Assembly: GCA_035944555.1 (NCBI GenBank)
Contig: DASZAY010000012.1
Coordinates: 77,899-141,898 of the forward strand
Direction of reading: 5' to 3'
From: Thermomicrobiales bacterium
GTDB taxonomy: Bacteria > Chloroflexota > Chloroflexia > Thermomicrobiales > UBA6265
DNA: 64,000 nt
Position numbers and translations under genes: made by a program
The notes under the pieces: generated by a model
Database searches by the model: none
The model's input: the letters and a program-made list of their open reading frames with translations, nothing else
Told to the model about the DNA's origin: nothing
Shown: in pieces, positions 13,221-62,493 of the stretch
Layout: each line of letters starts with the position of its first letter
Numbering within the stretch: position 1 is the first letter of the stretch

Positions 13221-13259
13221 GCGTGCCTGTCTCGCGCCGTCCTATCGCCTTCTGCCTTC

Positions 13260-13526: not shown

Positions 13527-13684
13527 CCAGGTTCGGGACTCGGATGGTTCAACGAGTCGCTCGGTCTGGCTCAATCACGGCCTGGCCGCGTCCACCCGGC
13601 ATGTGAGTGATCGTGCGAGCCATACAACGGGCCGAGACTGGCTTCCCCGTTGGTGCGTCCTTGGTCCGGCATCCTTAGTGACAC

Positions 13685-17316: not shown

Positions 17317-17976
17317 TCAGGTCCGACCGGTCGCCGCCCGCCGGGCGCGGTTGGCGGCAAGGTATCGCGACAGCCACCGGATCAGCAGGTCGGCGAGGAT
17401 AGCCAGGAGGGTGATCGCGATCGCGCCGGCGAGAATCTGCTCCGGTCGCCGGAGCTTGACCCCGTCGAACAGGAGGCGGCCGAGTCCACCGGCCGCGACC
17501 CAGCCGGCGACCGTCGCGGTGCTGATCGTCACCACCGTCGCGGTCCGGACTCCGGCGACGATCACCGGCAGGGCGAGCGGCAGGGTGACCCGGGTGAACA
17601 CCTGTGCGCCGGAGAGCCCCATCCCGCGCGCCGCCTCGATGACGGCCGGATCGACGCCACGCAGCCCCGTGATGATGTTGCGGACGAGGAACGTCAGCGA
17701 GTAGGCGGCGAGGACGATGACGGCATTGTTCGTTCCCAGACCCACCACGGGGATGAGGATGGCCAGGAACGCCAGGGATGGGATCGTGTAGATGGCGCCA
17801 AGCACGCTCAGGATCGGCAGGCCCAGAGCGGGAAACCGGGCGCCCAGTACGCCGAGCGGGATCGCGATGACCAGCCCGAGCAGCAGCGCGTAGACGCTCA
17901 GTTGCAGGTGCTCCAGCGTCAGCTCAAGCACCCGACCAGGGTTTTCGAACAGGTAGTCGAGCGACAGGCCGCTCAT
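17317..17976 (-). CDS. Osmoprotectant (glycine betaine/choline/carnitine-type) ABC transporter permease
   Basis: BPD_transp_1-type permease of about 219 aa with 5-6 TM segments. It has a 4-nt overlap with the upstream ATPase gene and belongs to a four-gene Opu-type cluster. Confidence 0.85.
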   Translation of the reverse strand: MSGLSLDYLFENPGRVLELTLEHLQLSVYALLLGLVIAIPLGVLGARFPALGLPILSVLGAIYTIPSLAFLAILIPVVGLGTNNAVIVLAAYSLTFLVRNIITGLRGVDPAVIEAARGMGLSGAQVFTRVTLPLALPVIVAGVRTATVVTISTATVAGWVAAGGLGRLLFDGVKLRRPEQILAGAIAITLLAILADLLIRWLSRYLAANRARRAATGRT

Positions 17977-19046: not shown

Positions 19047-19175
19047 CGCTCTCCGTCGACACCGGGACCAGGAGCGGACCGGGTCACATCCGGGAGTCTG
19101 GATCAATCCGCCCGAAAACGCCGGGAGGGCACCGGCCGTGGCCAGCACCCTCCCGGCAGCGTATCAGGGTTGGAA

Positions 19176-20192
19176 TCAGCCCGTGATGATGCCGTTGTCG
19201 GTCAGGAACTGCCGCGCGACGTCAGCCGGCTCCCCGCCATCGACGACCACCGCGACGTTGAGCGAGATCATCGCCTCGGTCGTCAGCAGATCGATGACCG
19301 GGTTCACCAGCTCCGGGATGTTCGGGTAGGCCTCGATGACCTCGTTGCGGAACACCGGGACCGCGTGGGCCGGCGGGAACAGGCTCAGGTCGTCCTGCAG
19401 CACGACCAGGTCGTTCTGGGCGATCTCGGCGTCGGTCCCGAAGGCGAGGACGACGTTCGCCTCGCCAGCAAGGAACGCATCGTACTTCAGGCCCGGGTCG
19501 ACGCCATTGACGGTGGCGTTCTCGAAGCCGCCGCCGTAGGTCGCCTGCAGCGCGACGAACCCGTCGCCGCGATCGGGCGCCTCGAAGTCGACCGGCGCGG
19601 AGATCGTGATGTCGTTGTCAGCGCCCCACTCAGCCAGCTCGCTGATGGTCGTGATGCCGTTCTCGTCGGAGAAGGCGCGGGTCACGGCGATCGCCTGGTT
19701 GTTGTTGAAGGGCGTCTGGTTGAGCGCCGTCAGGCCGAGCTCGGCGTACCCGGCGACGATCGCGTCGTAGACGTAGAGATCGGCGGCCGAGAACGCGGAT
19801 CCCTCACCGGCGACTGGTGTCGCGGCTTCGGGCGACGCCGCGAGCTGACCCGCGACCTCAGCGTAATCCATCGCGAAGATGCCTTCGAAGGTGTACGCCG
19901 TGCCCGAGTACTCCGGGTAGACGTCGATCTCACCCTCGACGAGCGCGGTGTGGGCGATGCCCGTGCCGCCCAGGTTGATGGCGTCGAGGTTGACGGCGAC
20001 GCCGCCGTTCTCGAGGGCCTGGCCGATCAGGTGGCCGAGCGTGAACTGCTCCGGGAAGTCCTTGGAGCCGACGCGGACGGGTTCGCCCTGTGCTCCCGAC
20101 GGCCGGGTGAGTGCGGCGAGTCCGAGCCCGGCAACGGGAACGGCAGCCGCTCCCTTGAGAATGGTTCGACGGGAAAGGGGAGTGCGGTTCAT
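19176..20192 (-). CDS. Glycine betaine/choline-type substrate-binding protein (OpuAC family), Tat signal
   Basis: MNRTPLSRRTILKGAAAVPVAGLGLAAL is a twin-arginine signal, and SKDFPEQFTLGHLIGQALENGG is typical of OpuBC/OpuCC-like binding proteins. GAAAGG lies upstream of ATG 20192. Confidence 0.85.
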   Translation of the reverse strand: MNRTPLSRRTILKGAAAVPVAGLGLAALTRPSGAQGEPVRVGSKDFPEQFTLGHLIGQALENGGVAVNLDAINLGGTGIAHTALVEGEIDVYPEYSGTAYTFEGIFAMDYAEVAGQLAASPEAATPVAGEGSAFSAADLYVYDAIVAGYAELGLTALNQTPFNNNQAIAVTRAFSDENGITTISELAEWGADNDITISAPVDFEAPDRGDGFVALQATYGGGFENATVNGVDPGLKYDAFLAGEANVVLAFGTDAEIAQNDLVVLQDDLSLFPPAHAVPVFRNEVIEAYPNIPELVNPVIDLLTTEAMISLNVAVVVDGGEPADVARQFLTDNGIITG

Positions 20193-20455
20193 CACAGGGA
20201 AACCTTTCGTCCTGGGGTGATTGGCGATCCAAGGGTGGATCCTGGCCGGGGGACTACACCCGGACAGAGCGAAGGGGGACCGTCGCAGGCCGAATGGTTC
20301 GTTCGCAAGAACAGTTCCCCAATCGGCCGGGATCCCCCGGTCCACAGACCATAGGTTGAATGCCGGTCAATCCTTGCCCTCTTGAGGCAGACGGGACGGG
20401 CTATCGCCACCGGCGGACCGGACGGAACCGGAGACCGGGGAGTTGGCCCGTTCCG

Positions 20456-21169
20456 CTACCGACCGGGAGCGGGGGCAGCACGGAACGGCCAGAGCCGTCG
20501 TGCTCGAGAGGAGCGGCCCGGCTGCTCCGGCGGCGTAACGGCACGCTGGAACCCGGCGAGGATCACCTCGGTCAGCAGGGCGAGGATTGCGATCGGGATC
20601 GCCCCGGTGAGCAGCTCCACGTCGTTGAGCGTCGAGATCCCGCTGGTCAGGTAGAGCCCCAGGGTCCGGACGCCGATGAACGCCGCCACGGCCGCCGACG
20701 CGATGATCTCGATAGCGGCCGCCCGGACGCCACCGATGATCACCGGCAACGCAAGGGGCACCTCCACCCGGAAGAATGCCTGGACCGGGGTCATCCCGAG
20801 TCCCTTCGCGTTCTCTCTGACGGAGGCGGAGACGCTTCGCAGCCCGGCGTCGGTGTTGATGACGAGCGGCGGCCCGGCCAGGACGACCAGCGCGATCAGC
20901 GCCGTCTGGTAGCCGGTCCCGATGACCGAGTAGCCAAGGAAGACGATGGCCAGCGACGGCACCACCCGCGCGGCCGAGACCACGCCAAGGATCCCCGGGC
21001 CGACGATGCGCGTCTTGTTAACCAGGACCCCGAGCGGCACGAAGATCAGGAGCGCGAGTACCAGCGCGGACCCGGACAGGCGCAGGTGCGTCTCCAGGGC
21101 GCCGGTGAATCGGTCCGGGTTGTCCGCGATCGCGGTCCAGACTTCGCCAAGGATGCCCAGGGTCGACAC
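20456..21169 (-). CDS. Osmoprotectant ABC transporter permease (second permease)
   Basis: 237-aa BPD_transp_1 permease, paralogous in pattern to 17317..17976, and the first gene of the cluster. Confidence 0.85.
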   Translation of the reverse strand: MSTLGILGEVWTAIADNPDRFTGALETHLRLSGSALVLALLIFVPLGVLVNKTRIVGPGILGVVSAARVVPSLAIVFLGYSVIGTGYQTALIALVVLAGPPLVINTDAGLRSVSASVRENAKGLGMTPVQAFFRVEVPLALPVIIGGVRAAAIEIIASAAVAAFIGVRTLGLYLTSGISTLNDVELLTGAIPIAILALLTEVILAGFQRAVTPPEQPGRSSRARRLWPFRAAPAPGR

Positions 21170-21506
21170 TCCGTTCAGGTGATCAGCGGGTCAGGTCCGC
21201 ACGATGGCCGGAGGGATTCGTGCCGATCGTAACAACTCGGCCATAGTTCCGCGATAGCGGAGGCGCGAGCGCGTGCAACCATCGTCCTTGCGAATCGGTC
21301 ACTTGACCCTGACGCGGCGGGAGGGTGTGCAATCCGACCGCAGGAGCACCATCGCCCGCAAGGTCCGGGCCGACCGGCAACCATCTGTCTCCCGGGCGTT
21401 CACCGGGACACGGAACGACCGGTATCACGATGCACCATGACGGCGAGCGCGCGATTGCGAATACCCGGCGGACCGATCGGTGCTGCCGGGCTGGGGGAGC
21501 GAGAGC

Positions 21507-22355
21507 ATGACGACGGAAACGGGCATGAAGATGGACACGGGGAACCAGGCGGCGAGCGACGGCCGGTACATGATCCAGGCGACCAGGGTCGTCAAGGAGT
21601 ACACCACCGGCCACGCCACCATCCCCGCGCTCAAGGGCGTCGACTTCGCGGTCGAGCGGGGCGAAATGGTCGCCGTGATGGGGCCGTCGGGTTGCGGCAA
21701 GACCACCCTGCTCAACTGCCTCTCCGGGCTGGACGACATCACGTCCGGGCAGGTCCTGCTCGAGGGGGTGGACCTCGCCACCCAGAGCGACCGGCAGCGG
21801 ACGGTGTCGCGGGCCAAGCGGATGGGGTTCATCTTTCAGGTCTACAACCTGCTGCCGGTCCTGAGCGCCGTCGAGAACGTGGAGCTGCCGCTGCTGGTCA
21901 GCGGGGTCAAGCCGAAGGAAGCCCGCAGCCGTGCCCAGGCCGCGCTCGGCCAGGTGGGCCTCGCGAAGTGGGCGGGACACCGGCCGGCCGAGCTGTCCGG
22001 TGGCCAGCGCCAGCGCGTCACGATCGCCCGGTCGCTGGTCAACGAGCCCGCCATCGTCTGGGCCGACGAGCCGACGGGCGCGCTGGACAGCACCAACGCG
22101 ACCGAGATCCTCAATCTGATGCGAACGCTCAACAAGGAGCAGGGGCTGACGCTGGTGATCGTCACGCATGACCCCGGTGTCGGCGCGGGCTGCGACCGCA
22201 TCGTCCGGATGCGCGACGGCGAGATCGTCGGCGAGGAGAAGACTTCCGGCGAGTTTGGCACCGACGGGCTCGGCACGCTTCACGGCACCGAGGACAGCGT
22301 CCAGATGCCCAGCCGGACGTCTCAGCTCACCCGCGAGCTCTACGCCCGGTCCTGA
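21507..22355 (+). CDS. ABC transporter ATP-binding protein (MacB/LolD-like)
   Basis: Contains [34 protein letters not shown] and [11 protein letters not shown]. It pairs with a downstream FtsX-type permease. The start is uncertain (21480 or 21507). Confidence 0.9.
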
Positions 22356-33378: not shown

Positions 33379-34305
33379 CTAGCCCTTGAGCGCTCCCGCC
33401 GTCAGGCCACCCTCGAGCCGTCGCTGGAAGACGATGTAGACCACCAGCATCGGCACCATCGTGATGGTCAGGCCGGCAAACAGGGCCGACCAGTCCGAGC
33501 GGTAACCCTGGTTGAGATTCAGCGCCTGCAATCCCTGGGCGATGACGTAGTTGTTCTGATCGGCGTTCAGGACCAGCGGCAGCAGGTACTGGTTCCACTG
33601 GCCGAGGAAGTTGAAGATCGCCATCGCGATGATGCCCGGCCGGGCGAGGGGAAGCATGATCTGGAAGAACACGCGGTACGGACCGGCTCCGTCGATGATC
33701 GCCGCTTCGGCCAGGTCGGTCGGCAGGTTCTTGAAGAAGCCGTGCAGGAAGAAGATCGAGAACGGCAGCGAGTAGGCGATGTAGACGAGGACCAGGCCGT
33801 GCTTGGTGCCGAGCAATCCGAGGTCCTGGACGACGAAGTAGAGCGGGACCAGCGCCAGGAAGGTCGGGAACATCAGGCCGGCGACGAACAGGTAGTAGAT
33901 GACCCGGTTGCCCGGCCACTGGAACCGCGACAGCGCATAGGCGGCCATCGACGAGACGAGCAGAGTGCCAACGACACCGAAGCCCACCACGACGACCGTG
34001 TTCCAGATGTACCGGCCGATCCGGGCCTCGTTCCAGGCCCGGACGAAGTTGTCCATCTGGAGGGCGCCGGGGATGCTCCACGGTGAGGACAGGATCTCAG
34101 CGTCGGTCTTGAACGCCGAGACCACCATCCAGAGCAGCGGCAGGATGACCAGCGCCGCCCAGATGGTCAGGAAGACCTGCGAGGTGAAGAGGAAGCTCCA
34201 GTCGCCCTTCGTCATGTGGTGGCGCCGGAAGTCGGTGCTGGCGACGGCGGCGTGATCACCGTCCCCGATCCCGTCCTGCTTGATCTGCTCCGCGTTGATG
34301 ACCAT
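33379..34305 (-). CDS. Carbohydrate ABC transporter permease (CUT1, MalG/UgpE-like)
   Basis: Has 6 TM segments and the EAA-loop region DLAEAAIIDGAGPYRVFFQIMLPLARPG. Confidence 0.9.
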   Translation of the reverse strand: MVINAEQIKQDGIGDGDHAAVASTDFRRHHMTKGDWSFLFTSQVFLTIWAALVILPLLWMVVSAFKTDAEILSSPWSIPGALQMDNFVRAWNEARIGRYIWNTVVVVGFGVVGTLLVSSMAAYALSRFQWPGNRVIYYLFVAGLMFPTFLALVPLYFVVQDLGLLGTKHGLVLVYIAYSLPFSIFFLHGFFKNLPTDLAEAAIIDGAGPYRVFFQIMLPLARPGIIAMAIFNFLGQWNQYLLPLVLNADQNNYVIAQGLQALNLNQGYRSDWSALFAGLTITMVPMLVVYIVFQRRLEGGLTAGALKG

Positions 34306-34390
34306 GTCGTCTCCTGCTGGGCGAGGTGGCTCGTGTGGCTCCCGCTCCGTCGCGACAGCGAAGGGGAGGGACCGGGCAGAAGGCCCGGCC

Positions 34391-35278
34391 CTAGTACTCG
34401 TACGTGTCGCGGCGGGAAGCGCGAAGGGTGATCAGCGAGAGGATCAGCGTCAGAAGCAGTAGCACGACGCCCATCGCCGTGGCGTAGCCCCAGAGCGAGC
34501 GGGTAAAGGCGCGGTCGTACATGTAGAGGGCGATGACTTCGGTCGAGCGGTTGGGACCACCGGCGGTCATGACCTGAACCAGCGCGAACATGTCCAGCGC
34601 GGCGATGGCGATATAGACGACGCCGACCCGAATGTTCTCCCAGATCAGCGGCAGCGTGATCGTCCGGAACTGGGTGAAGCGGCCCGCGCCGTCGAGTGTG
34701 GCGGCTTCAAAGAACGAGTCGGGGATCCCCTGGATGCCGGCGATGAACAGCACCATGTAGAAGCCAACACCCTGCCAGATCACCACGGCGGCAATCGCCC
34801 AGATCGCGATGGTCGGGTCGCCGAGCCAGGCGACGGGCTGATCGAAACCCAGGAAGCGGAGCACGCCGTTGAGCAAACCATCTCCGGTGGACTTGTAAAC
34901 ATTCTTGAAGAGCACGCCGATGATTACGATCGAGAGGATCTGGGGGAAGAAGAAGACGATCCGGTAGAACGACGAACCGGGTACGCCTCGCGCCCCCTGG
35001 GTGAACAGGGTCGCGAAGAGGAGCGCCAGCGAGATCGTGATCAGCGGGATGACGAGCAGGAAGAACGCGTTGTTGCCTAGCGCGTTGGTGAAGTTGCCGT
35101 CTTCGGCCAGCCGCTGGTAATTGGAGAACCCGGTCCAGGGCCGCTGGTCGGACATGCCCCGCCAGTCCGTCAGGGAAACATAGAAGGATTGCACGTAGGG
35201 ATAGAGGACGAAGACCCCGTACAGGATGAGCGCGGGCAGCATGAAGGGGATGACCAGACGATAGCGCTGGTGGTGCAT
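34391..35278 (-). CDS. Carbohydrate ABC transporter permease (CUT1, MalF/UgpA-like)
   Basis: Has 6 TM segments and the EAA loop FFEAATLDGAGRFTQFRTITLPL. Confidence 0.9.
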   Translation of the reverse strand: MHHQRYRLVIPFMLPALILYGVFVLYPYVQSFYVSLTDWRGMSDQRPWTGFSNYQRLAEDGNFTNALGNNAFFLLVIPLITISLALLFATLFTQGARGVPGSSFYRIVFFFPQILSIVIIGVLFKNVYKSTGDGLLNGVLRFLGFDQPVAWLGDPTIAIWAIAAVVIWQGVGFYMVLFIAGIQGIPDSFFEAATLDGAGRFTQFRTITLPLIWENIRVGVVYIAIAALDMFALVQVMTAGGPNRSTEVIALYMYDRAFTRSLWGYATAMGVVLLLLTLILSLITLRASRRDTYEY

Positions 35279-35383
35279 AGGGACTTCTCCGGAAACACGA
35301 CACCGGCCGGGCGCTAACCCGACCGGGGACGGCGCCGGCGGGCGACCACGTGGGCCCCCGCCGGCGCGGGGCAGTGCCGGGGA

Positions 35384-53312: not shown

Positions 53313-54203
53313 TCACGTTAGACGGCCCGGCAGGCGCTCGATGGTACGGACGGTGAGGGCGGCTGCTCTCCGGCCAACTTCGGCCAGCGGGAACTCGTCC
53401 ATCGCGCCGCCAAGATCCGTCGCAGCGGTGTACTCGTTGTTGGAGATGTCCTTGATCGGCAACAGCGGCAGGTCCAGCCGCTGGCAGATCACGCCCAGAG
53501 CCGCCGTTTCCATCTCCTCGCAGAGCGTCCCGTGGCGCTCGAACAGGATGTCGATCCGCGCCGTCGCCTGGGTCCAGGTGTCGGCCGAGGCGACCGCCCC
53601 GACATGGATCTGCGGGACGTGACCGGTCGTCGGCCACGGCTCAGGTTGCCAGTCTGCGGCCGCCTCGTGAGCGGCACGAAGCAGCTCGGGATCGCTCGGC
53701 GTCTCGGAGGGCGGCAACGGGTCGGGGCCGGTCGAGAGCGTGTTGCCCCGGTAACGCTCGGTACCGTCCGGGAGCAGGTCGAAGGCGGCGTGGTTGATCG
53801 AGACGTCGCCGATGATCACGTCGCCCAGCGTCAGGTCTCGCCGGTGCGCGCCAGCGCAGCCGTAGGAGATCACCGCGCGGATGGTCATCCGCCCCAGCAG
53901 CGCGGCGAGCGCCCCGGCGGCATTGGCCGGACCGATCCCGGCGAGGACCGCCACGATTGGGTGCCCGGCGATCGTGCCGGACCAGACCGGCCAGGTCCCG
54001 GCCAGCGGGGTCCGGTTCGGCTCCGGCAGGACGGTGAGCTCCCGGCGAGCATCCTCGGTCAGGAGCCCCAGCGCCGGGTCGGCGCTCCCGTCCTCGGCTT
54101 CGTCGAGGACCAGCGCGTCGAACAGGTGACGGAGCTCGGTTCGCATCGCGACGATGATGGCGACCGGGGCGTTGGGGTGCTTGTGGGCGGAAATGGCGGG
54201 CAC
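53313..54203 (-). CDS. PNP_UDP_1 family nucleosidase (MTA/SAH nucleosidase / futalosine hydrolase-like)
   Basis: Contains VAIIVAMRTELRHL, VLAGIGPANAAGALAALL, ISYGCAGA and EEMETAALGVICQRLDLPLLPIKDISN, the typical MtnN/Pfs motif order. Several insertions are present. Confidence 0.75.
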   Translation of the reverse strand: MPAISAHKHPNAPVAIIVAMRTELRHLFDALVLDEAEDGSADPALGLLTEDARRELTVLPEPNRTPLAGTWPVWSGTIAGHPIVAVLAGIGPANAAGALAALLGRMTIRAVISYGCAGAHRRDLTLGDVIIGDVSINHAAFDLLPDGTERYRGNTLSTGPDPLPPSETPSDPELLRAAHEAAADWQPEPWPTTGHVPQIHVGAVASADTWTQATARIDILFERHGTLCEEMETAALGVICQRLDLPLLPIKDISNNEYTAATDLGGAMDEFPLAEVGRRAAALTVRTIERLPGRLT

Positions 54204-54225
54204 GGGACCTCCAGGGAGCCGGGAT

Positions 54226-54606
54226 CTATCGAAGCAGCGAGACGATCATGCTGCCGGCCAGGACGATCAGGACCAGCGTCGAAATGGCGGCGAAGCGGCG
54301 ATCGCCCAGCCGCAGGAAGCCCGCGATGATCCCAAGCGTGGTCACCACCGGCGTCAGCACGATCGCGAAGATCGCCAGCTCTGCGAAGGCTGCCGGGTTG
54401 CCATCGGCGACGGCGTCCGGGAGCTCGCCAAGGGTGAATGTCTCCCGGCCGATGGGATCGCCGCTGACGACGGACGCGACCAGGGAGGCGACGACGAAGG
54501 CGACGCAGACGAAGAAGCCGCTGACCAGGCAGAGGCGTGCGATCCGGTAGACCACGTCGGCAGGCTGCGTCTCGGCCGGGGATGGGGTGGAGGACGGTTG
54601 CTTCAT
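54226..54606 (-). CDS. DUF1634 domain membrane protein
   Basis: Small 3-4 TM protein immediately downstream of a TauE/SafE gene, which is the usual genomic partner. Start set at ATG 54606 (MKQPSS..). Confidence 0.7.
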   Translation of the reverse strand: MKQPSSTPSPAETQPADVVYRIARLCLVSGFFVCVAFVVASLVASVVSGDPIGRETFTLGELPDAVADGNPAAFAELAIFAIVLTPVVTTLGIIAGFLRLGDRRFAAISTLVLIVLAGSMIVSLLR

Positions 54607-54610
54607 CGGG

Positions 54611-55504
54611 CTAGCGCTCCCACGGGACATCGATGCCGGCGGCCTGGAGAATCATCGAGACGGCCAGGAACAGCATGATTGCGACGAACAGCCCGATCAG
54701 CTTCTCGGTCGACATCCGCCGGGTCAGGCGCGGACCGAGCTGCGAGCCGATGAAGACGCCGATCAGCGCGAACACGACGACCTGCGGGTCGATCTCGCCG
54801 GAGGCGTAGTAGACGGTCGCGGTCGCCACGGCGGCGAACCCCACCATGAAGGTGCTGGTCCCGGCCGCCGCCTTGACCGGCACCTTCATCAGCGCCGTCA
54901 TCGCCGGGACCTGGATCAGCCCGCCACCGATGCCGAGCATGCCGGAGAGGACGCCCGCTCCGGCGCCGATCCCGATCCCGGCCCGGATGTTCCGCGGCTC
55001 GTAGGCGATGTCCTTGCCGGTCGCCCGGTCGCGGAACCGCCCGGCGAGCGGGGAGAGGACCGGGGCCGAAGGCGGCGGGTCCTGGGATTCGCCGGGAATC
55101 GCGGTCGGCGCCTCAACCGGTACGACTTGGGGCTTTGGCCGGCGCTGGGCCAGCATCGAGATGATCGCGTAGACGAGGACCGCCGCGAAGATCGCGCTGA
55201 TCACGCGCTGATTCATCGCGACGCCGACGATCGCCCCGACGGTCGCGCCGGCGGCGGTGGTCACCTGGAGCAGCATCGCCAGCCGGAGATTGGTGAACTG
55301 GCTGCGCAGGTGGACCGTCGAGCCGACGACCGAGTTGGCGACGACGGCGACCGCGCTGGCCCCGATCGCCGCCTTCTGGTCGATGCCGAAGAAGATCGTG
55401 AACAGCGGGACGATGAAGATCCCGCCGCCGAGTCCGAGCATCGAGCCGATGATCCCGGCGCCGGCCGAAACGACCGTCAGCAGCAGGAGTTCCTGGAGTT
55501 CCAC
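54611..55504 (-). CDS. Sulfite exporter TauE/SafE family membrane protein
   Basis: Contains GAGIIGSMLGLGGGIFIVPLF and a second internal repeat GVLSGMLGIGGGLIQVPAM, the two-repeat TauE signature. Confidence 0.9.
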   Translation of the reverse strand: MELQELLLLTVVSAGAGIIGSMLGLGGGIFIVPLFTIFFGIDQKAAIGASAVAVVANSVVGSTVHLRSQFTNLRLAMLLQVTTAAGATVGAIVGVAMNQRVISAIFAAVLVYAIISMLAQRRPKPQVVPVEAPTAIPGESQDPPPSAPVLSPLAGRFRDRATGKDIAYEPRNIRAGIGIGAGAGVLSGMLGIGGGLIQVPAMTALMKVPVKAAAGTSTFMVGFAAVATATVYYASGEIDPQVVVFALIGVFIGSQLGPRLTRRMSTEKLIGLFVAIMLFLAVSMILQAAGIDVPWER

Positions 55505-55548: not shown

Positions 55549-57093
55549 TTACTCGCGCGCCAGCACGGCGAGGGTCAGCAGGACCAGTCGGGCGGTCGCC
55601 CGGGTGTAGTCAGTGTCGACGCCGTCGATCGTATCGCAGGTGCAGTTGATCAGCGGATCGCCGTAGAGCATGCTCGCGACGAGGATCGTCGGGATACCGG
55701 CGTTGGTCAGCGGGACTTCATCTGCCACGATCGCCGGGTTTTGCCGTGGGGCGACGTTGAGCTCGAACCCGACGTCGTCATAAACAGTCAGCAGGATGTC
55801 CTGGATGAACGCGGACGATGGCGACGCGTTGACGTAGAGCACCCGGTAGCCGTAGGCGGTGCCGACCGAGTCGATGTTGATCCCACCGCCGTAGGGTGTG
55901 CCTTCCTCGATCGCTCGATCCCCGAACGCAAAAGCTCCCTGCAGCCCCACCTCCTCTCCATTGAGGGCGACCAGCCGGACCGGGTAGGTCAACTCGTACC
56001 CGGAGAGGACCCGGGCCGCTTCGAGCAGGACGGCTACACCTGTGCCGTTGTCCAATGCGCCCGGAGCGATGTCGTTGCCCGGCGTATCTTCGGCGATCGT
56101 GTCGAAGTGGGCGAATGCCGCCCAGATCGGGCCCTCGACCTTGCCCGGGATCTCGGCCACGACATTGAGGGACAGCATCCCGTTGCTGGCGACGTAGTCC
56201 TCGTACCAGACGTCCAGCCCGTAGGCGGCAAAGCGAAGGAACAGATATTCGGCCGCTATCTGGTTGCCCGGCAGGGCGAAGTACCGGGAGCCGGGAGTGC
56301 CGGGCTCGACGCCGGAGGACGCCAGGTCGGCGATCGTCCAGATGATCTCGCTCTCGTTCGCGTCCAGCGCCTGGTCGACGGCATCGGAGACCGCAGGCCG
56401 GCTGCCCCCGGGCTGAGCCGTGAGCTGCGGAGTCCCGGCCGGGACGTACGGCATGACCTTTTCGACTACCGTCCCGGCGGCGAGGAGTTCCGCGACGAAG
56501 GCGGGCACGGACGCCAAGGCGACGATGCTCGTCGCGGCCTCCTCGTCGACCACCGTCCCGGTCGCCTCGATCAACTCGCGATTGGGCCGTGCCGGCCCAT
56601 CGGTGATCGCATAGAGGTTGAGTGACGGCGCCTCGTCGACGATGTGGACCGGTTCGGCACCGGCAGCGACCAACCACCCGAGGTCGGGCGGCGTGCCGCC
56701 GACCCAGACGGCCGTCTCCGTCCGGTACGACGCCCGCATGCCAGTCGACTCAAGGGCGGTGTCGGTCGCCGGTCCGCTGGCGAACCGGACCAGACATGGG
56801 CCGGCGCAATCGAACGCGTCGACCGGTGTGGCCCGGACGTCGGGGGTGGCTGCCGGAGTGGCACTTACCGGGGTCGCACCGATCGGCGTGGCACTCACCG
56901 GAGTAGCACTTACCGGGGTGCCGACGGCCGGCGTTCCGCTCGTGGGGGTTGCGGCTACGGGACTCGACGGCGCCGGTGTGGCTCGCTCGACGCGACCCCA
57001 CGCGCCGGCAGGGAGCATCGATCCGACGATGACCAGGACGACGACGATCAGCAGGATCGGTCGGGGAGTGACCGCACCACGATTCCAGCGCAT
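55549..57093 (-). CDS. Secreted/anchored M28 family metallopeptidase with an (x-S-A-T-P)n linker
   Basis: Start at ATG 57093 (MRWNRGAVTPRPILLIVVVLVIVGSML). The M28 core reads AHFDTIAEDTPGNDIAPGALDNGTGVAVLLEAARVL ... LNGEEVGLQGAFAF. The ORF-track start at 57459 adds 122 implausible residues. Confidence 0.85.
   Translation of the reverse strand: MRWNRGAVTPRPILLIVVVLVIVGSMLPAGAWGRVERATPAPSSPVAATPTSGTPAVGTPVSATPVSATPIGATPVSATPAATPDVRATPVDAFDCAGPCLVRFASGPATDTALESTGMRASYRTETAVWVGGTPPDLGWLVAAGAEPVHIVDEAPSLNLYAITDGPARPNRELIEATGTVVDEEAATSIVALASVPAFVAELLAAGTVVEKVMPYVPAGTPQLTAQPGGSRPAVSDAVDQALDANESEIIWTIADLASSGVEPGTPGSRYFALPGNQIAAEYLFLRFAAYGLDVWYEDYVASNGMLSLNVVAEIPGKVEGPIWAAFAHFDTIAEDTPGNDIAPGALDNGTGVAVLLEAARVLSGYELTYPVRLVALNGEEVGLQGAFAFGDRAIEEGTPYGGGINIDSVGTAYGYRVLYVNASPSSAFIQDILLTVYDDVGFELNVAPRQNPAIVADEVPLTNAGIPTILVASMLYGDPLINCTCDTIDGVDTDYTRATARLVLLTLAVLARE
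56855..56930 (-). repeat. In-frame imperfect tandem repeat of about five 15-nt units, encoding GTPVSATPVSATPIGATPVSATP
   Basis: The plus strand reads GGAGTGGCACTTACC GGGGTCGCACCGATC GGCGTGGCACTCACC GGAGTAGCACTTACC GGGGTGCCGACGGCC. Confidence 0.6.
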
Positions 57094-57324
57094 CACGAAC
57101 TCCAGCAATCGACAACACCAACCACGATTACCTGTACATACACCGGGCGGAGTGTACCGCGATACGATGACTGATCCGATCCAGGGATACCGGGCTCTTT
57201 CGCGATCGTCGTTGACACGCAGGCCGGAGCGGGCGATGCTTCCCAGCGGCTTCGCCCGGGTGGGCGAGCCGCGACACGACTGACAACCCAGGGCGATCGG
57301 GCGTCTCTCCGCGGGCATGAATGC

Positions 57325-57430
57325 TGGCGGAGGAGACGAGACGGGGGAAGCCGGTGAGAATCCGGCGCTGTCCCGCAACTGTGACGGACGGACGAGAGTC
57401 CACTCCGGAGCCAGGCTACCCGTTCCGATC
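57325..57430 (+). promoter_or_regulatory. Cobalamin (B12) riboswitch aptamer
   Basis: The conserved core GGGAAGCCGGTGAGAATCCGGCGCTGTCCCGCAACTGTGA lies at 57345..57384. A B12-box-like AGTCCACTCCGG follows, then GAGCCAGGCTACCCG (compare the consensus GAGCCAGGAGACCTGCC). The aptamer lies in the 5' leader of the 57624 operon. Its boundaries are approximate. Confidence 0.85.
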
Positions 57431-57503
57431 GCGACCGGCCCCTCCGAGAGAGAGGGCATCCGGCGACCGGCTTCGCGATAGCTTCGCGTCTACCGGCCGA
57501 CCG

Positions 57504-57543
57504 ACGCCCGTTCCTCATCCGCGAGGGACGGGCGTTTCCGTTT
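57504..57543 (+). terminator. Riboswitch expression-platform terminator
   Basis: ACGCCCGT(t)CC-tcatccgcgag-GGACGGGCGT is followed by TTCCGTTTC. It lies 80 nt upstream of ATG 57624. Confidence 0.7.
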
Positions 57544-57623
57544 CAAGCCCACGGGGCCAGAGGACGGGACCACGGGATCGATCGGAAATCGCGCTGGACG
57601 ACTCGTCGCGGAGAAGAGATGTC

Positions 57624-58655
57624 ATGGTTGTTCCGTTCCACACACTGACTGGTGAGATCGCTCGCCGTCTCGCTGCCCTGCTGATCGCGCTGGCACTCGT
57701 CGGCGGGCTGGCGGCTCCGGCCGCCGCTCAGGAGGCCACTCCAGGGGCTGGTACGCCGTCGGCGGGGACGCCTGCGGCCTCCGTTGTCGGGCTCGGTGGC
57801 GTTGATCTCGCCGCTGCCGCGGCCGGGCTGATCGCCGTCCAGGATGCCGGTGGTGGCTTCATCGGCTTCAGCGGTGACGCCGATCCTGGCGTGACGACTG
57901 ACGCCGTCATGGCGCTTGTCGCGGCCGAAGAAGCTGGCGTCGATGTCGGCGACAGCATCGACCTCGCCCTCGGCTACCTCGAGAGCGAAGGCGCCGCCTA
58001 CGCGGAGATCGGGATCGGCCAGGCCGCCAAGCTGGTCCTGGCGGTTGTCGCCGCGGGCGCCGATCCGGCGGCATTCGGCGGGACGGACCTTGTGGAGGCC
58101 ATCGAAGGTATCGAGATCGTCGACGGAGTGATCGGCACCGGCTACTTCGACGCCGCCTACGTGACGCTCGCCGCCGCGGCGCTCGAGAGCGAGCGGACCA
58201 GCGAGTTCAGCGACGCACTGCTCGCTGGCCAGCTTGAGGACGGCTCCTGGGCGTACTCGCCCGGCGCGGCTGTCGGCGACGGTGATAGCAACACGACCGC
58301 GCTGGCGCTGCAGGCCATTGTCGCGACCGGCAACGCCGAAGACCCGGCGATTGAGGCCGGGCTGGCCTACCTTGCGACGGTCCGGGCCGAGAACGGAGGC
58401 TACGGGTACGCCGCCGTCACCGATGTGCCAACCGTCGCCGATGCTAATTCCACCGCGCTGGTGATCCAGGCGCTGATCGCGACCAGCACCCCGGTCGATG
58501 ATGCCGGATTCCAGGCCGATACCGAGGCGCTGGCGGCGTTCCAGCTGGAGTCCGGTCAGTTCGCCTACCTCCTCGACGATCCGACCGACAACCTGTTCGC
58601 GACCGTCCAGGCCATCCCGGCCGCCGCCGGACTGCCGCTGCCCGTCGCCGCCTGA
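57624..58655 (+). CDS. Secreted prenyltransferase/terpene-cyclase-like (alpha/alpha toroid repeat) protein, B12-riboswitch regulated
   Basis: A signal peptide ends at ..LAAPAAA|QEATPGAGTP. Repeated motifs of the QW/prenyltransferase type are spaced about 45-50 aa apart: VQDAGGGF, QLEDGSWAY, RAENGGYGY and QLESGQFAY. First gene after the riboswitch. Confidence 0.7.
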   Translation: MVVPFHTLTGEIARRLAALLIALALVGGLAAPAAAQEATPGAGTPSAGTPAASVVGLGGVDLAAAAAGLIAVQDAGGGFIGFSGDADPGVTTDAVMALVAAEEAGVDVGDSIDLALGYLESEGAAYAEIGIGQAAKLVLAVVAAGADPAAFGGTDLVEAIEGIEIVDGVIGTGYFDAAYVTLAAAALESERTSEFSDALLAGQLEDGSWAYSPGAAVGDGDSNTTALALQAIVATGNAEDPAIEAGLAYLATVRAENGGYGYAAVTDVPTVADANSTALVIQALIATSTPVDDAGFQADTEALAAFQLESGQFAYLLDDPTDNLFATVQAIPAAAGLPLPVAA

Positions 58656-58716
58656 TGAGATTCGCCGGGTCGCTCCCATTGCGGTCCGGCGAACGGAACC
58701 GATTGAACCCACGACC

Positions 58717-59403
58717 ATGAGACACATTCCCGTCCCGCTGCCGATCCTCGCTGTCGCCCTCCTGCTGATCACCATCCTGTCCCTCGATGGGACGGTGGTG
58801 GCTGGACAGGACGCGGCCGCCGGATCGGTCAGCCGGGCGGGAATCGTCGTTCTCCACGGTGACGGATCCCGGACCGACGCCGTCGTGGCGTTCCCGGGCG
58901 CCGACGTGTCCGGTGTCGAACTGCTCCGGCAATCGGGGATCGAGGTCCTCGCCGTCCCGTTCGGCGGCCTCGGTGAAGGGATCTGCCAGATCGAACAGGA
59001 AGGCTGCGAGATCTCGGAGTGCCGGCGGACCGTCTGCCAGGCGACGCGTGACGCCCCCTACTGGCAACTGTTCGACCGGGTCGCGGCTGACGGGACATGG
59101 CAGTCGGCCCGTCTGGGGGCCTCCGCCTCCCGGGTGAGGGACGGGCAGGTCGTCGTCTGGGCCTGGACCAACGATCCGATCGACCTGCCTCGCCTGGACC
59201 TGCCCGCGGTCGCGACCGCGGCGGGACTGGACCAGGAAGCCCTCGAGACGTTCGGGCAGGACGGCCCGGACGCGGTCGTCGCGTCGGGGTATACGAGCCC
59301 GTCCGCCCCGGTGACATCGAGTGCGGGGCTGATTGGCCTGCTGGCGATCATCGTGACCGGCGCGGTCATCCTGCTCGGCAGGCGCCTACGTATGGTCCGA
59401 TGA
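58717..59403 (+). CDS. DUF4430-like (transcobalamin beta-domain-like) protein with an N-terminal signal/TM and a C-terminal TM anchor
   Basis: The core AGIVVLHGDGSRTDAVVAFPGADVSGVELLRQSG..FGGLGEGICQIE..APYWQLFDRVAADGTWQSARLGASASRVRDGQVVVWAW follows the DUF4430 pattern, a (Y)W-x-(Y/L)-x-V..G......G.....(V/L).DG(D/Q).(I/V).W. The C-terminal anchor is GLIGLLAIIVTGAVILLG. Assigned by pattern only. Confidence 0.5.
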   Translation: MRHIPVPLPILAVALLLITILSLDGTVVAGQDAAAGSVSRAGIVVLHGDGSRTDAVVAFPGADVSGVELLRQSGIEVLAVPFGGLGEGICQIEQEGCEISECRRTVCQATRDAPYWQLFDRVAADGTWQSARLGASASRVRDGQVVVWAWTNDPIDLPRLDLPAVATAAGLDQEALETFGQDGPDAVVASGYTSPSAPVTSSAGLIGLLAIIVTGAVILLGRRLRMVR

Positions 59404-60878
59404 CGATTCCGGCGATCCCACGGCCCCGGAACGTGCCGTCCGTCCGGCGCACCCGACGACCATTATCCGGTTCCTTGCCGTCCGGTCGCAGCCGACCCGA
59501 CAGGAGAATCAGTGGGGCGCAGGGGTCGCGCTCCCAGGTCCGGGCCGTCACGCCGATCTCGGAACGACCTTCGACGTACCGTGATCCGGTTGACGCGACG
59601 CAGGTCCTCGATCCGCGCGTCTGGCTCGTCTGGCTGGCGGCAGTCACGTTCCCGGCTCTGGCTGGCCGGAACCCGTTTCCGCTTTTCGGGTTGCTGATCG
59701 TGGTCATCGTCGTCCGGGGAGCCTGGGCGCCGGCACTCGTCCGGGAGGCGGGCTGGGTGCTGGTCCTCCGGATCGCCCTCTTCGCCGCCGTCCTCAGCGT
59801 CCTCTTCAACCTGCTGGCGGCCCCGTTCGGCGACCAGGTCCTCGTCCGGCTCCCGTCGTGGTGGCCGCTCGGCGACGTCATGACGCTCAACGCCCTGACC
59901 TACGGGCTGATGGGGGCGCTGGCGATCGTCGTGATCGTCCTCGCGGGAACCATCGCCGGGGCGCTGGTCGACTGGCCGGAGCTGCTGCGGATGGTGCCAG
60001 GGCGGCTGCTCCCGCTCGCCGTTGCCGGGAGCATCGCCTGGGCGTTCGTCCCGCGGACCGTGTCGACGATCCGGGACATCCGCGACGCCCAGCGGAGCCG
60101 GGGCTTGCGCTTCGAGTCGGCCCGGGCGGTCCTGCCACTGCTGGTCCCGCTGATCGCGACCTCGCTGGAACGCGCGTCCACGACGGCCGAGGCGCTGGAA
60201 TCGCGAGGGTTCGGCGGCAGTTCGGGTCTGTCGCGAAGCCGCCGTCGCCGGGGCGCGAGGGCCATGCTGGCCGGAGGTGCAGCCCTGGGGGTCCTCGCCG
60301 CAACCACCTGGCTGAATGGAGACCGGACCGTGGCCGGACCCACCGCCCCTGGGGCGATCGTCCTGCTCGTCTGGGGCCTTCTCCTATCGCGCCAGTCGTC
60401 GGGCCGGACCCGCTATCGCCAACGTCGCTGGACCGGCGCGGACCGGGTGATCCTCGCGGCGGCGGCAGCCTCCCTCGGGTTGTCAGTCCTCGTCTGGCTC
60501 CGGCACCGGGAGGCGGTTGCCTGGAGCCCGTATCCCGATGTCGTCTGGCCCGCAGGCGACGGCTGGCTGATGGTGGCGATCCTCCTGCTGTTCGCGCCCG
60601 CGGTCGCCGCCCCCCTGGTCGTGCAGCGCGGGGAGTCGGCAAGCCGGGACGCTCTCGTCCAGTCCCCGGAAGCTCCCGGGACTTTCACGGTCGCGGTCGT
60701 CAAGGACAACGCGCCAGGACTAATGTCCCCGGCCAGTCGCCGCGGTCACCATTCCCGGCAGCGACCGTTCGCGTGCTGGCCTCCGCGGGTCATCAACCGC
60801 GGCAGGCAAGATCATGAGGTGCCCCGGTTGCTCGACGTGGTACCCAGGTCCGATCTGAGGCTCGCCGGGGATGATTGA
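59400..60878 (+). CDS. ECF transporter transmembrane (T) component EcfT/CbiQ with N- and C-terminal extensions
   Basis: The ATGA start/stop overlap with the preceding gene suggests coupling. TM1-4 are followed by the two coupling-helix motifs, IRDIRDAQRSRGL and TSLERASTTAEALESRGF (Ala-Arg-Gly type). There is a roughly 65-aa Arg-rich N-terminus, and about 4 TM segments instead of about 1 after the coupling helices. Confidence 0.85.
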   Translation: MTIPAIPRPRNVPSVRRTRRPLSGSLPSGRSRPDRRISGAQGSRSQVRAVTPISERPSTYRDPVDATQVLDPRVWLVWLAAVTFPALAGRNPFPLFGLLIVVIVVRGAWAPALVREAGWVLVLRIALFAAVLSVLFNLLAAPFGDQVLVRLPSWWPLGDVMTLNALTYGLMGALAIVVIVLAGTIAGALVDWPELLRMVPGRLLPLAVAGSIAWAFVPRTVSTIRDIRDAQRSRGLRFESARAVLPLLVPLIATSLERASTTAEALESRGFGGSSGLSRSRRRRGARAMLAGGAALGVLAATTWLNGDRTVAGPTAPGAIVLLVWGLLLSRQSSGRTRYRQRRWTGADRVILAAAAASLGLSVLVWLRHREAVAWSPYPDVVWPAGDGWLMVAILLLFAPAVAAPLVVQRGESASRDALVQSPEAPGTFTVAVVKDNAPGLMSPASRRGHHSRQRPFACWPPRVINRGRQDHEVPRLLDVVPRSDLRLAGDD

Positions 60879-62493
60879 GCGGCCAGCAAGGACCATCGCG
60901 CGGCTGGCCAATGTCTCGTACCGCTACCCTGGCGCCACGCGTCCCGTCCTCACCTCGGTGGACTGGGAGATCCCGGATGGCGCGTTCGTCGTCGTCGCCG
61001 GCGCGTCTGGCAGCGGCAAGAGCACCCTGCTGCGGACCCTCAACGGTCTGGTGCCCCACTACTCCGGCGGGCGCTTCGGTGGGCGGGTCACGGTGGCCGG
61101 CCTGGATACCCGCCGCCATGGTCCTCGTGAGCTGGCGAGATCGGTGGGGTTCGTCTTCCAGGACCCGGAAGCGCAGCTCGTCACAACCCGGGTGGTAGAC
61201 GAGATCGCGTTTGGCCCGGAACAGTTCGGGATGCCCACGCGGGCGCTACGGGTTCGGGTCGAGGAGGCGCTCGACCTGGTCGGGATCGCCCACTTGGGCG
61301 GCCGGGAGATCGCCACGCTCTCCGGGGGCGAGCGACAGCGCGTCGCCATCGCCGCCGCCATGGCGCTCGGTCCGCGTCTGCTCGTCCTCGATGAACCGAC
61401 CAGCCAGCTGGACCCGTGGTCGACCGAGGAGGTGATCGCGGCGCTCGTCCGGCTCAATTCCGATCACGGGATCACGGTCGTCATCGCCGAGCATCGCCTG
61501 GACCAGCTGGCTGCCGGAGCCGACCGCTTGCGGATGGCGATCGAGGACGGACGCTGGCTGGAGGGTCCACCAACCTCGGTTGTGGCCGACGGGCGGGTGC
61601 CCGATCTGCTCCTGCCGTCCGTCGTGCGTCTCGGGCGGCGGCTGGGCTGGTCGCCGCTGCCACTGACGGTCAAGGCGGCCCGCGTCGCCGCTGCCGGCAC
61701 ACCGGTGAGGATCAGTGCCCCGCGAACCGCCACCGCCGACGGTCAGACGCTGATCTCGGCTCAGGGCCTGCGCCTGGAGCATCCGGTTCCGGGCGGTGCG
61801 CGGCCGGTCCTCGCTGATGTCAACCTGCGACTTCGTGAGGGCGAGATCGTGTCCCTTGTCGGGCGGAACGGGTCGGGAAAGTCGACGCTGCTCCGTGCCC
61901 TCGCCGGCCTGCATCGTCCCTCCGCGGGGAGCATTCGCTGGCCTGGCGATGCCACCCGGCCCCTGGACGGGATCGTCGGTTACCTGCCCCAGGACCCGTC
62001 GGCGTTGTTGTTCAACGAGCGGGTCGAGGACGAGCTGGCAATCGGGCGGTCCGCCGCCGAACGGGCCGGACGACCTGAGCCGTCGTGTGAGGCATTGCTG
62101 GCGTGGCTCGGACTGGCCGATCTCGCCGACCGGCACCCGCGCGATCTGAGCTCGGGGCAACGGCAGCGGGTCGCGATCGCCGCGGTCCTGGCCGCCGCGC
62201 CGTCCGTCGTCCTGCTCGACGAGCCAACGCGCGGAATGGACGGCGTCCGGAAGGCTGAGTTGATCGCCCTGCTCCGGGAGCTGGCCGGCACCGGTCTCGC
62301 CATCGTTGTGGCGACCCATGACATGGAACTCGCTGCTGCCGTGGCCCATCGGGTCGTGATGCTGGGTGGGGGAGAAGTGATCGCGGATGGGCATCCGCGA
62401 TCGGTACTCGGCTCGGCGCTGGGTTACAGCCCCCAGGTGAGCCGGGTCCTCGGGCCGGACGTCCTCAGCGTCGAGGACGTCGAACGAGGCTGA
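60871..62493 (+). CDS. Fused double ATPase (EcfA-EcfA'/CbiO-like) of the ECF transporter
   Basis: Two complete ABC cassettes are present: GASGSGKSTLLRTLNG / LSGGERQRVAIAAAMA / LVLDEPTSQLD, and GRNGSGKSTLLRALAG / LSSGQRQRVAIAAVLA / VLLDEPTRGMD. The start overlaps the EcfT stop (ATGATTGA). Confidence 0.9.
   Translation: MIERPARTIARLANVSYRYPGATRPVLTSVDWEIPDGAFVVVAGASGSGKSTLLRTLNGLVPHYSGGRFGGRVTVAGLDTRRHGPRELARSVGFVFQDPEAQLVTTRVVDEIAFGPEQFGMPTRALRVRVEEALDLVGIAHLGGREIATLSGGERQRVAIAAAMALGPRLLVLDEPTSQLDPWSTEEVIAALVRLNSDHGITVVIAEHRLDQLAAGADRLRMAIEDGRWLEGPPTSVVADGRVPDLLLPSVVRLGRRLGWSPLPLTVKAARVAAAGTPVRISAPRTATADGQTLISAQGLRLEHPVPGGARPVLADVNLRLREGEIVSLVGRNGSGKSTLLRALAGLHRPSAGSIRWPGDATRPLDGIVGYLPQDPSALLFNERVEDELAIGRSAAERAGRPEPSCEALLAWLGLADLADRHPRDLSSGQRQRVAIAAVLAAAPSVVLLDEPTRGMDGVRKAELIALLRELAGTGLAIVVATHDMELAAAVAHRVVMLGGGEVIADGHPRSVLGSALGYSPQVSRVLGPDVLSVEDVERG

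Follow-up and report, generated by a model that had tools for sequence, protein, structure and literature searches.

A riboswitch-linked gene pair in Chloroflexota as a candidate split, transcobalamin-like corrinoid binder beside an ECF-type importer

In a 64-kilobase (kb) stretch of DNA (the window) from the metagenome-assembled genome of a high-G+C member of the Thermomicrobiales (Chloroflexota), a name under which databases already list the identical proteins, four tightly packed plus-strand genes lie 3′ of a cobalamin riboswitch and a hairpin in an operon-like array (Table 1). The first two (genes 1 and 2) encode exported proteins with a predicted alpha/alpha toroid and a predicted beta-type domain, respectively, and the last two (genes 3 and 4) encode parts of an energy-coupling factor (ECF) importer. 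A first-pass annotation of the sequence had read genes 1 and 2, whose coordinates it gave exactly, as a possible transcobalamin-like corrinoid binder divided between two polypeptides; we find this reading supported, chiefly by comparative and modeled evidence, and weigh it here against other explanations. The pair is separated by 61 nucleotides (nt) and thus specifies two polypeptides, not one, while the downstream junctions are tighter still: the ATG of gene 3 overlaps the stop codon of gene 2 (ATGA), and the first 8 nt of gene 4 are shared with the 3′ end of gene 3.

Table 1. Riboswitch, hairpin and genes of the operon-like array, in window coordinates (aa, amino acids; bp, base pairs; ORF, open reading frame).
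Feature	Position	Strand	Evidence or detail
Cobalamin riboswitch aptamer (RF00174)	57281..57443	+	51 bits vs. gathering threshold 31.5; E 8.9e-10; full model 1-189
Terminator-like hairpin	57503..57545	+	G+C-rich 14 bp stem, then UUUCCGUUUC (U-rich tract)
Gene 1, exported, unanchored predicted alpha6/alpha6 toroid, 343 aa, SCO2321-related	57624..58655	+	ORF and start; AlphaFold2 model; Foldseek
Gene 2, exported predicted beta-grasp-type domain (~residues 38-152), four-cysteine insert, linker, C-terminal membrane anchor, 228 aa	58717..59403	+	SCO2322 (PF28005) relative
Gene 3, EcfT/CbiQ-like transmembrane component	59400..60878	+	Conserved core ~59589-60620 (residues ~64-406; CbiQ domain and four-helix C-terminal extension)
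Gene 4, fused EcfA-EcfA′ ATPase, 540 aa, two ATP-binding cassette (ABC) domains	60871..62493	+	Pfam, NCBIfam

The aptamer is the sole Rfam match across the window, scores above its gathering threshold and sits on the same strand as the genes, 181 nt 5′ of gene 1, in agreement with the earlier claim that the pair is riboswitch-regulated. RNA folding of positions 57490-57552 gave -31 kcal/mol (z -4.1), a stability that none of 200 shuffles equaled. A simple consensus terminator scan did not pick up the hairpin listed in Table 1; judging from its sequence, it is probably the transcription-terminating expression platform of the riboswitch. To follow this linkage more widely, we drew on 18 loci from species-representative genomes, all Chloroflexota and retrieved with a 15-sequence alignment (the genome loci), and on further related loci and proteins (identified below by our L and P numbers). 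Each of the 15 genome loci with upstream sequence has a riboswitch ahead of the pair, and one is present as well in L019, L025, L026, L029, L030, L032, L033 and L034; in all, it precedes the pair in 23 of the 23 related loci that have the pair and sufficient upstream sequence. The loci that lack one are contigs broken off too soon, the unusual L017, and L018, where the only match is a weak one to gene 2 by itself. Among the loci examined, the SCO2322 family, to which we relate gene 2 below, is nearly always riboswitch-linked.

The first-pass annotation had proposed looking for the pair, and for fused versions of it, in other genomes, and both were found. The order gene 1, gene 2, EcfT, fused EcfA-EcfA′ (EcfAA′) is kept on one strand in 16 of the 18 genome loci, with protein identities down to ~35%, and the same four genes recur in loci reached from distant gene 1 homologs, as the pair and ECF genes do in loci reached from distant homologs of either gene. 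At L029 the order differs (toroid, T, AA′, SCO2322, S component) and the set is intact. Fusions run both ways: the toroid precedes a SCO2322 domain with its membrane anchor kept in P0308, P0264 and P0311 (alpha-beta), and it follows two SCO2322 domains in P0296 (beta-beta-alpha) and one in a 479-residue protein of L025 (beta-alpha). P0308 was found on contigs from two samples and P0296 on contigs from three; P0308 (with a riboswitch upstream) and P0264 occupy the two-gene slot 5′ of the EcfT gene. The L025 fusion belongs to a single riboswitch-headed unit (3679-14030) that encodes, in order, a small protein, CobT, the SCO2322-toroid fusion, a SCO2322 protein, an S component, EcfT, EcfAA′, a PduO-type adenosyltransferase, CobS, an AP_endonuc_2 protein and CobU. 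By its predicted gene content this unit is a cobinamide/cobamide salvage set, i.e., an uptake-plus-salvage cassette.

Two other arrangements of the modules were observed. On short contigs (L021-L023; proteins P0296, P0275 and P0388), tandem SCO2322 domains, two or three per protein, alternate with toroid modules, an organization that suggests multi-site surface binders. At L030 (5001-7612), gene 2 is fused in frame to an EcfT-like protein (P0268), and ~850 nt without a called gene follow before the ATPase. We considered P0268 as evidence of contact between the beta-type protein and the T component and set it aside as doubtful: it comes from a single contig, the 850-nt gap is unexplained, and an assembly or frameshift artifact is possible.

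Gene 1 encodes an exported protein, as had been claimed. Its N-terminus carries a Sec-type signal (RR, a hydrophobic core and AAPAAA/QE), and a membrane anchor is absent; none of 120 homologs has a C-terminal anchor, and one distant toroid homolog that does carry its own membrane anchor matches the SCO2321 family at 3e-32. The four motifs singled out in the first-pass annotation as regularly spaced (VQDAGGGF, QLEDGSWAY, RAENGGYGY and QLESGQFAY) are all present, at residues 72, 203, 254 and 307; the last three are indeed spaced regularly, ~51-53 residues apart, and the first is not, lying 131 residues before the second. Core residues of these motifs (Q73, G77-G78-F79, Q203, G207, W209, G258, Q307, G311 and Y315) are at least 85% conserved among 59 homologs. 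Sequence families place the protein only loosely: Pfam returned weak, sub-threshold squalene-cyclase matches only, and the NCBIfam equivalog model SCO2321_fam (NF053823) matched at 3e-21 over model positions 99-220 only, with 75.7 bits against a cutoff of 300. On these profile scores, gene 1 is related to the SCO2321 family and is not an equivalog. Its 368 homologs are mainly unnamed or annotated as prenyltransferase or terpene cyclase family.

AlphaFold2 modeling of gene 1 with 59 homologs gave a predicted local distance difference test score (pLDDT) of 91.8 and 12 helices after the signal peptide, arranged as an alpha/alpha toroid. Foldseek searches of the PDB with this model ranked small squalene-hopene-cyclase-like proteins at the top (9e-8), followed by drimenyl diphosphate synthase and the beta subunits of Rab geranylgeranyltransferase, with GH76 mannanases also among the best matches. 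The first transcobalamin chain is at rank 19 (7qbg_C, E 7e-5, 303 columns), and 4zrp, 8ixu and 2v3n occur further on; the transcobalamin chains span E 7e-5 to 3e-4 over ~303-311 columns and have the lowest root-mean-square deviations of the list. Modeling thus confirms the toroid, and the fold search does not single out transcobalamin among the toroid matches. Gene 1 does not have the marks of a class II terpene cyclase (a catalytic DxDD motif) or of a protein prenyltransferase beta subunit (Zn ligands that include Cys), which are cytoplasmic enzymes: it has a signal peptide and Pfam matches below cutoffs, it lacks the DxDD motif (any DxDD occurs in only 2 of 59 homologs), and cysteine is absent altogether from 27 of the 59. 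Export, the missing DxDD and the cysteine-free homologs together argue for a binding module rather than an enzyme, and from sequence an enzymatic role is unlikely. As a separate observation, residues 35-40 (window ~57726-57743) form a stretch, A-Q-x-A-T-P, just past the predicted cleavage site; A35, A38, T39 and P40 are among the most conserved residues of the family, and the stretch, which is disordered in the model, may be a processing or interaction motif.

Gene 2 combines a signal peptide with a C-terminal hydrophobic helix (203-221, then RRLRMVR), i.e., the membrane anchor that had been described earlier, and a hydrophobic C-terminal anchor is found in 252 of 271 beta-family proteins. The Y-W...DG..V.W ending was likewise described correctly: it corresponds to Y115-W116 ... 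D142-G143 ... W148-x-W150 and ranks among the most conserved parts of the family (W116, W148 and W150 invariant, D142 and G143 at least 90% conserved, in 26 homologs). The conserved core, approximately residues 38-152, also contains an insert that had gone unmentioned, with four invariant cysteines (C90, C97, C102 and C107; C-x6-C-x4-C-x4-C). Cysteine counts per member of the beta family are most often 4 (41 members), 8 (29), 5 (27) or 9 (20), and the cysteine-rich insert is probably stabilized by two disulfides. Between the beta domain and the anchor, residues 152-190 (window ~59170-59286) are predicted with high confidence to form two short helices and a strand (LP.LDL..VA..AGLD); this segment is kept only in the closest subfamily, and elsewhere in the beta family there are linkers rich in Pro and Thr, a PEP-CTERM signal (P0245) or, in 11 of 146, weak LPXTG-type matches.

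As to family, gene 2 itself has no match in NCBIfam or in a Pfam copy without PF28005, and no precomputed Pfam entry. Some homologs of gene 2 carry a precomputed PF28005 assignment (named SCO2322; NCBIfam NF040672), and the gene 2 profile retrieves them at 1e-15 to 9e-59; on this profile evidence we treat gene 2 as a relative of the SCO2322 family. An exhaustive search at E ≤ 1e-3 gave 2,584 cluster representatives, and the family comprises ~2,600 clusters at 50% identity in public data. The AlphaFold2 model (pLDDT 85.3) places strands at residues 38-46 and 52-60, a helix at 66-73, strands at 77-81 and 87-92, an insert helix at 99-105, and strands at 115-122 and, further on, 145-151. The model reproduces in this way the bb-[abb]-bb succession known from the beta domain of transcobalamin. 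The sole significant PDB match found by Foldseek is 3u7z (E 1e-4; template-modeling (TM) score 0.73, normalized to the 96-residue target), an unpublished structural-genomics protein of Ruminococcus gnavus that its depositors labeled a “putative metal binding protein.” A 2026 paper (PMC13385337) assigns 3u7z to CATH superfamily 2.170.130.30, which also contains the transcobalamin-1, transcobalamin-2 and intrinsic factor beta domains, and reports that their bb-[abb]-bb arrangement includes a hairpin in contact with cobalamin. The earlier description of gene 2 as “DUF4430-like” is therefore right for the fold, in the order of the model and in the match to 3u7z, and wrong for the family, as gene 2 is a SCO2322 relative and PF14478 does not match it. 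The structural search that had been proposed at the outset came out in favor of the idea for both proteins, with transcobalamin among the matches of the 12-helix toroid and the gene 2 match falling in the superfamily of the transcobalamin beta domains. One further lead, BtuH of Bacteroides as a possible DUF4430 protein, was dropped: the paper is silent on DUF4430, transcobalamin and intrinsic factor.

Genes 3 and 4 are the ECF module that had been placed next to the pair, i.e., a CbiQ/EcfT-like protein and a duplicated ECF ATPase. Gene 3 matches Pfam CbiQ at 1.2e-10 over residues 69-273, and in searches of the PDB its profile aligned through the EcfT core only, to solved EcfT chains (5d3m/6fnp) at 6e-13. 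Beyond this core it has a conserved C-terminal extension of approximately four transmembrane helices (residues ~280-410) with the motifs RTRYR..W..D and Y.PYP; nothing similar to the extension was found in the PDB, and it is absent from solved EcfT structures. Gene 3 homologs typically have 345-355 residues, and both the 63-residue Arg-rich N-terminus and the tail past residue ~410 are poorly conserved, so that the ends of the gene, including its start codon, are uncertain. Gene 4 has two Pfam ABC_tran matches (1.3e-60) and scores above the cutoff of NCBIfam ECF_ATPase_1 (4e-101, 337.9 bits; cutoff 315) and just under that of ECF_ATPase_2 (4e-97, 324.5 bits; cutoff 330). The operon thus supplies what an ECF-type importer takes from an EcfT (CbiQ-family) component and two EcfA-type ATPase domains.

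The substrate-binding S component was sought separately. Hydropathy, screening by G+C content at third codon positions (GC3) and Pfam revealed none in the window, where the multi-helix membrane ORFs scanned belong to other families, and neither CbiM nor CbiN is encoded in the operon or the window. In related loci a conserved PF12822-type S gene of 250-294 residues occurs at four different positions (L016 9391-10149, L024 1483-2304, L025 7671-8555 and L029 7914-8753); its product matched no PDB chain by sequence, and tblastn with these four S proteins found nothing in the window or in L001-L015 (flanks up to 6 kb on each side). An S gene is probably encoded elsewhere in these genomes.

Considering these data together, we favor, at a probability of roughly 0.65, a B12-repressed corrinoid-scavenging operon whose split transcobalamin-like binder catches corrinoid outside the cell for the adjacent ECF importer; from the gene structure, riboswitch, predicted folds, linkage, fusions and salvage neighborhood we infer the ligand, the heterodimer and the hand-over. 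When cobalamin is plentiful, the aptamer would bind it and the downstream hairpin would end transcription; when cobalamin is scarce, the operon would be transcribed and its four proteins produced. The beta domain of gene 2 would then be tethered at the outer face of the membrane by its C-terminal helix, and the soluble toroid of gene 1 would join it around one corrinoid (cobalamin or cobinamide), as the domains of transcobalamin do. With the tethered beta half holding the complex at the membrane, the ligand would pass to an ECF-type importer energized by genes 3 and 4, whose substrate-translocating S component we presume to be encoded elsewhere in the genome. That the ligand would be a corrinoid, and not cobalt or heme, is suggested by the riboswitch and the salvage-gene context more than by the folds. 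The two-protein sandwich is suggested by the fold matches and by the way in which transcobalamin, intrinsic factor and haptocorrin enclose cobalamin between two domains. Predicted topology fits a two-chain binder, with the alpha protein unanchored, the beta protein anchored, and the anchor kept in alpha-beta fusions.

The proposed architecture resembles that of the vertebrate carriers transcobalamin, intrinsic factor and haptocorrin (PF01122 + PF14478) in that both are extracellular and join an alpha6/alpha6 toroid to a small bb-[abb]-bb beta domain, and, if our reading holds, both take a B12-related ligand. They differ in that the carriers are single polypeptides whereas two are encoded here, with no detectable sequence similarity between the systems; in the four-cysteine insert and membrane anchor of the beta half here; and in delivery, which relies on an endocytic receptor in vertebrates and is proposed here to end at a bacterial ECF-type transporter. 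There is precedent for a two-chain binder: intrinsic factor cleaved to fragments of 30 kDa and 20 kDa reassembles around cobalamin.

Several results weigh against this reading. At the sequence level neither protein is linked to transcobalamin: gene 1 has no PF01122 (Cobalamin_bind) match at E ≤ 1, PF14478 (DUF4430) is matched neither by gene 2 (E ≤ 1) nor by 146 family representatives (E ≤ 10), and sequence-profile searches of the PDB for transcobalamin or DUF4430 homology gave chance matches only. The human TCN2 query, which is identical in sequence to PDB chains, behaved as expected in controls (alpha domain, PF01122, 5.6e-118; residues 352-424, PF14478). Aligned to it with hhalign, the gene 1 family profile reached a probability of 0.2% against the alpha domain and SCO2322-type profiles reached 0.6% and 0.3% against the beta domain; although insignificant, the hhalign runs against the TCN2 alpha and beta domains all aligned the same “W..(x)n..DG” stretch, the one to which the first-pass annotation had drawn attention. 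Structure is more favorable, yet transcobalamin is the top fold match of neither protein: Foldseek places terpene cyclases above it for gene 1, and no transcobalamin chain occurs among the top 50 matches of gene 2, so that the beta-domain link depends on one structure, 3u7z. The missing S component leaves the membrane route incomplete within the operon. Finally, the sole experimental study of a comparable split pair, in Lactobacillus sakei, argued for heme uptake and not cobalamin (bioRxiv 10.1101/864751).

Among the alternatives, the one that survives best, which we nevertheless consider unlikely, is that there is no sandwich: one protein, probably the beta-type domain, would bind the ligand while the toroid served a separate role at the surface, e.g., in releasing corrinoids from carriers or binding cell-wall polymers. 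The enzymes that head the fold matches of gene 1 (terpene cyclases, prenyltransferase beta subunits and GH76 mannanases) would suit such a division of labor, as would tandem SCO2322 domains that have no toroid in the same protein (P0275 and P0388). These points are countered by fusions that join the modules either way round, some of them in the pair's own operon slot, by the strict adjacency of the two genes over diverged loci and by the lack of DxDD in the toroid; moreover, an unanchored alpha protein would need a tethered partner to stay on the surface of what is presumably a monoderm cell.

A second alternative accepts the pair and changes its partner. Were the ECF module to work without a classical S component, the alpha/beta pair would deliver corrinoid straight to the extended EcfT, i.e., the system would be a binding-protein-dependent ECF transporter. 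The S gene is missing from the operon here and in more than 20 related loci, as this scheme would have it, and we examined the four-helix extension of EcfT as a possible substitute for the S component. That candidate is weakened by the distribution of the extension, which is present in relatives with an operon S gene (L024, L025, L029 and L016) as well as in those without one, and is therefore unlikely to replace the S component. Since distant relatives that have the S gene in the operon share the extension, the S gene is more simply taken to be encoded elsewhere, and we regard S-independent delivery as improbable.

Import of cobalt, another metal or a metallophore comes next, and we give it poor odds. 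Here the pair would be a metal-capture device for a CbiQ/CbiO-type transporter, with the cysteines of gene 2 as ligands. The families that genes 3 and 4 match (CbiQ, cbiO) are indeed labeled “cobalt transport,” the C-x6-C-x4-C-x4-C pattern does not vary in the gene 2 family, and the depositors' label of 3u7z points the same way. Cobalt importers (e.g., CbiMNQO operons) are, moreover, commonly under B12 riboswitches. However, CbiM/CbiN, the S unit of cobalt ECF importers, is what the operon and window lack; a ~290-residue toroid combined with a beta domain has the build of a binder for large ligands; and the neighbors at L025 are genes for cobamide salvage and the lower ligand (CobT, CobS, CobU and the adenosyltransferase) rather than for a chelatase or the early pathway. 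A weaker point is that the two commonest cysteine counts are even (4 and 8), as for disulfides, though the odd counts of 5 and 9 are also frequent.

Slimmer still are the chances of heme, or another non-corrin tetrapyrrole, as the ligand. This explanation draws its force from the split pair of L. sakei, where deletion and complementation connected lsa1836-1840 (S, AA′, T, beta, alpha) with the uptake of heme, and docking put heme between the two modeled proteins (bioRxiv 10.1101/864751). In the loci studied here, on the contrary, a cobalamin riboswitch precedes the pair wherever there is enough upstream sequence to tell, cobamide-salvage genes share the L025 transcription unit, and heme-related genes were not found nearby. 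Least credible, and already contradicted by the comparative sequence data, is the plain reading of the source annotations (“terpene cyclase/mutase family protein,” [quoted passage not shown] and “hypothetical protein”) as ordinary proteins with no link to B12 beside an incidental riboswitch: riboswitch and operon stay linked at over 20 loci, in different gene orders and with protein identities as low as ~30-35%, the proteins carry export signals, and the catalytic motif is missing.

A corrinoid-scavenging operon with a transcobalamin-like binder is not a new principle, as the concept of such bacterial binders has already been proposed (PMC1796856; bioRxiv 10.1101/864751). Burroughs, Balaji, Iyer and Aravind (2007; PMC1796856) described bacterial transcobalamin-like SLBB proteins, exported or surface-located and predicted to scavenge B12 or its precursors, in which a toroid lies N- or C-terminal of the beta domain, beta paralogs share the operon, and the genes are linked to CbiO/CbiQ. 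Either fusion order, the beta paralogs and the CbiO/CbiQ linkage all recur in the present system. The 2007 SLBB clade, however, corresponds to the present Pfam DUF4430 and was viewed as a Gram-positive innovation, whereas the beta domain here is related to SCO2322 (PF28005), a family unseen by DUF4430 models; the text of that paper yielded no match for Chloroflexi or Streptomyces.

A comparable layout is that of Lsa1836-1840 of L. sakei (bioRxiv 10.1101/864751), in which a split exported pair (Lsa1839 beta-like, Lsa1840 alpha-like) stands beside an ECF module with fused A-A′. These traits are common to both systems. The L. sakei proteins differ in a transcobalamin-likeness that HHpred recognizes, in the S component Lsa1836 and in the heme uptake assigned to them; the locus described here has a divergent, membrane-anchored beta protein, no S gene in the operon and a cobalamin riboswitch. 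Among importers of B12 itself, ECF-CbrT of Lactobacillus delbrueckii (PMC5997447) shares the EcfT plus EcfA/A′ module, and the core of gene 3 aligns to that EcfT. ECF-CbrT has a membrane S component, and a term search of PMC5997447 gave no extracytoplasmic binder; the present locus, by comparison, encodes a pair of exported proteins that resemble binders, lacks an S gene within the operon and has an EcfT that is longer by the conserved four-helix extension. The SCO2321 and SCO2322 families, to which gene 1 and gene 2, respectively, are related, are named after adjacent genes of Streptomyces coelicolor; SCO2321 is a membrane-protein family, whereas gene 1 lacks a membrane anchor and falls far under the equivalog cutoff. 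A literature search on SCO2321-SCO2324 found no functional study of either family and one unrelated paper, and a search on riboswitch, prenyltransferase and ECF returned nothing relevant. The present system is set apart by a beta family invisible to DUF4430 models, its cysteine-rich insert and anchor, the different phylum, the consistent riboswitch linkage and the lack of an S gene in the operon.

Extracellular corrinoid capture in bacteria without BtuB or BtuF is poorly known, and this locus gives a concrete, testable role to the uncharacterized SCO2321-like toroids and SCO2322 proteins, namely the proposed one of a two-chain, membrane-tethered counterpart of animal B12 carriers. If this is right, the transcobalamin architecture would reach well past the low-G+C Gram-positive bacteria in which it supposedly originated, and the pair would represent a new class of high-affinity corrinoid binder, usable in B12 ecology and assays. 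To our knowledge, ECF transporters are usually described as lacking soluble binding proteins; our reading, if true, would strengthen the case for extracytoplasmic capture proteins in some ECF systems.

Other features of the window were recorded in passing. Divergent from and upstream of the riboswitch operon lies a minus-strand cluster (53313-55504) of a PNP_UDP_1 nucleosidase-like gene, a DUF1634 gene and a TauE/SafE permease gene. Genes of this cluster were found again in 10-14 of the 18 genome loci. L019, L030 and L033 have the whole cluster, which in L019 and L030 stands immediately next to the riboswitch, divergently oriented; at L032, where the cluster is near the riboswitch, there are only DUF1634 and TauE gene fragments. 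Such recurrence could reflect a functional link or mere synteny of related genomes. A minus-strand ORF of an M28-family peptidase (55549-57459), with a long N-terminal repeat rich in Ala, Thr, Pro and Val (ATPVSATPVSATPIGATPVSATP...), is inserted between this cluster and the riboswitch. As listed, its longest ORF runs over the riboswitch, so its true start must be further downstream. Elsewhere in the window, and unrelated to the operon, are an OpuAC-type glycine-betaine ABC importer (17317-22355; two permeases, a binding protein and an ATPase) and a second BPD_transp_1 permease pair (33379-35383).

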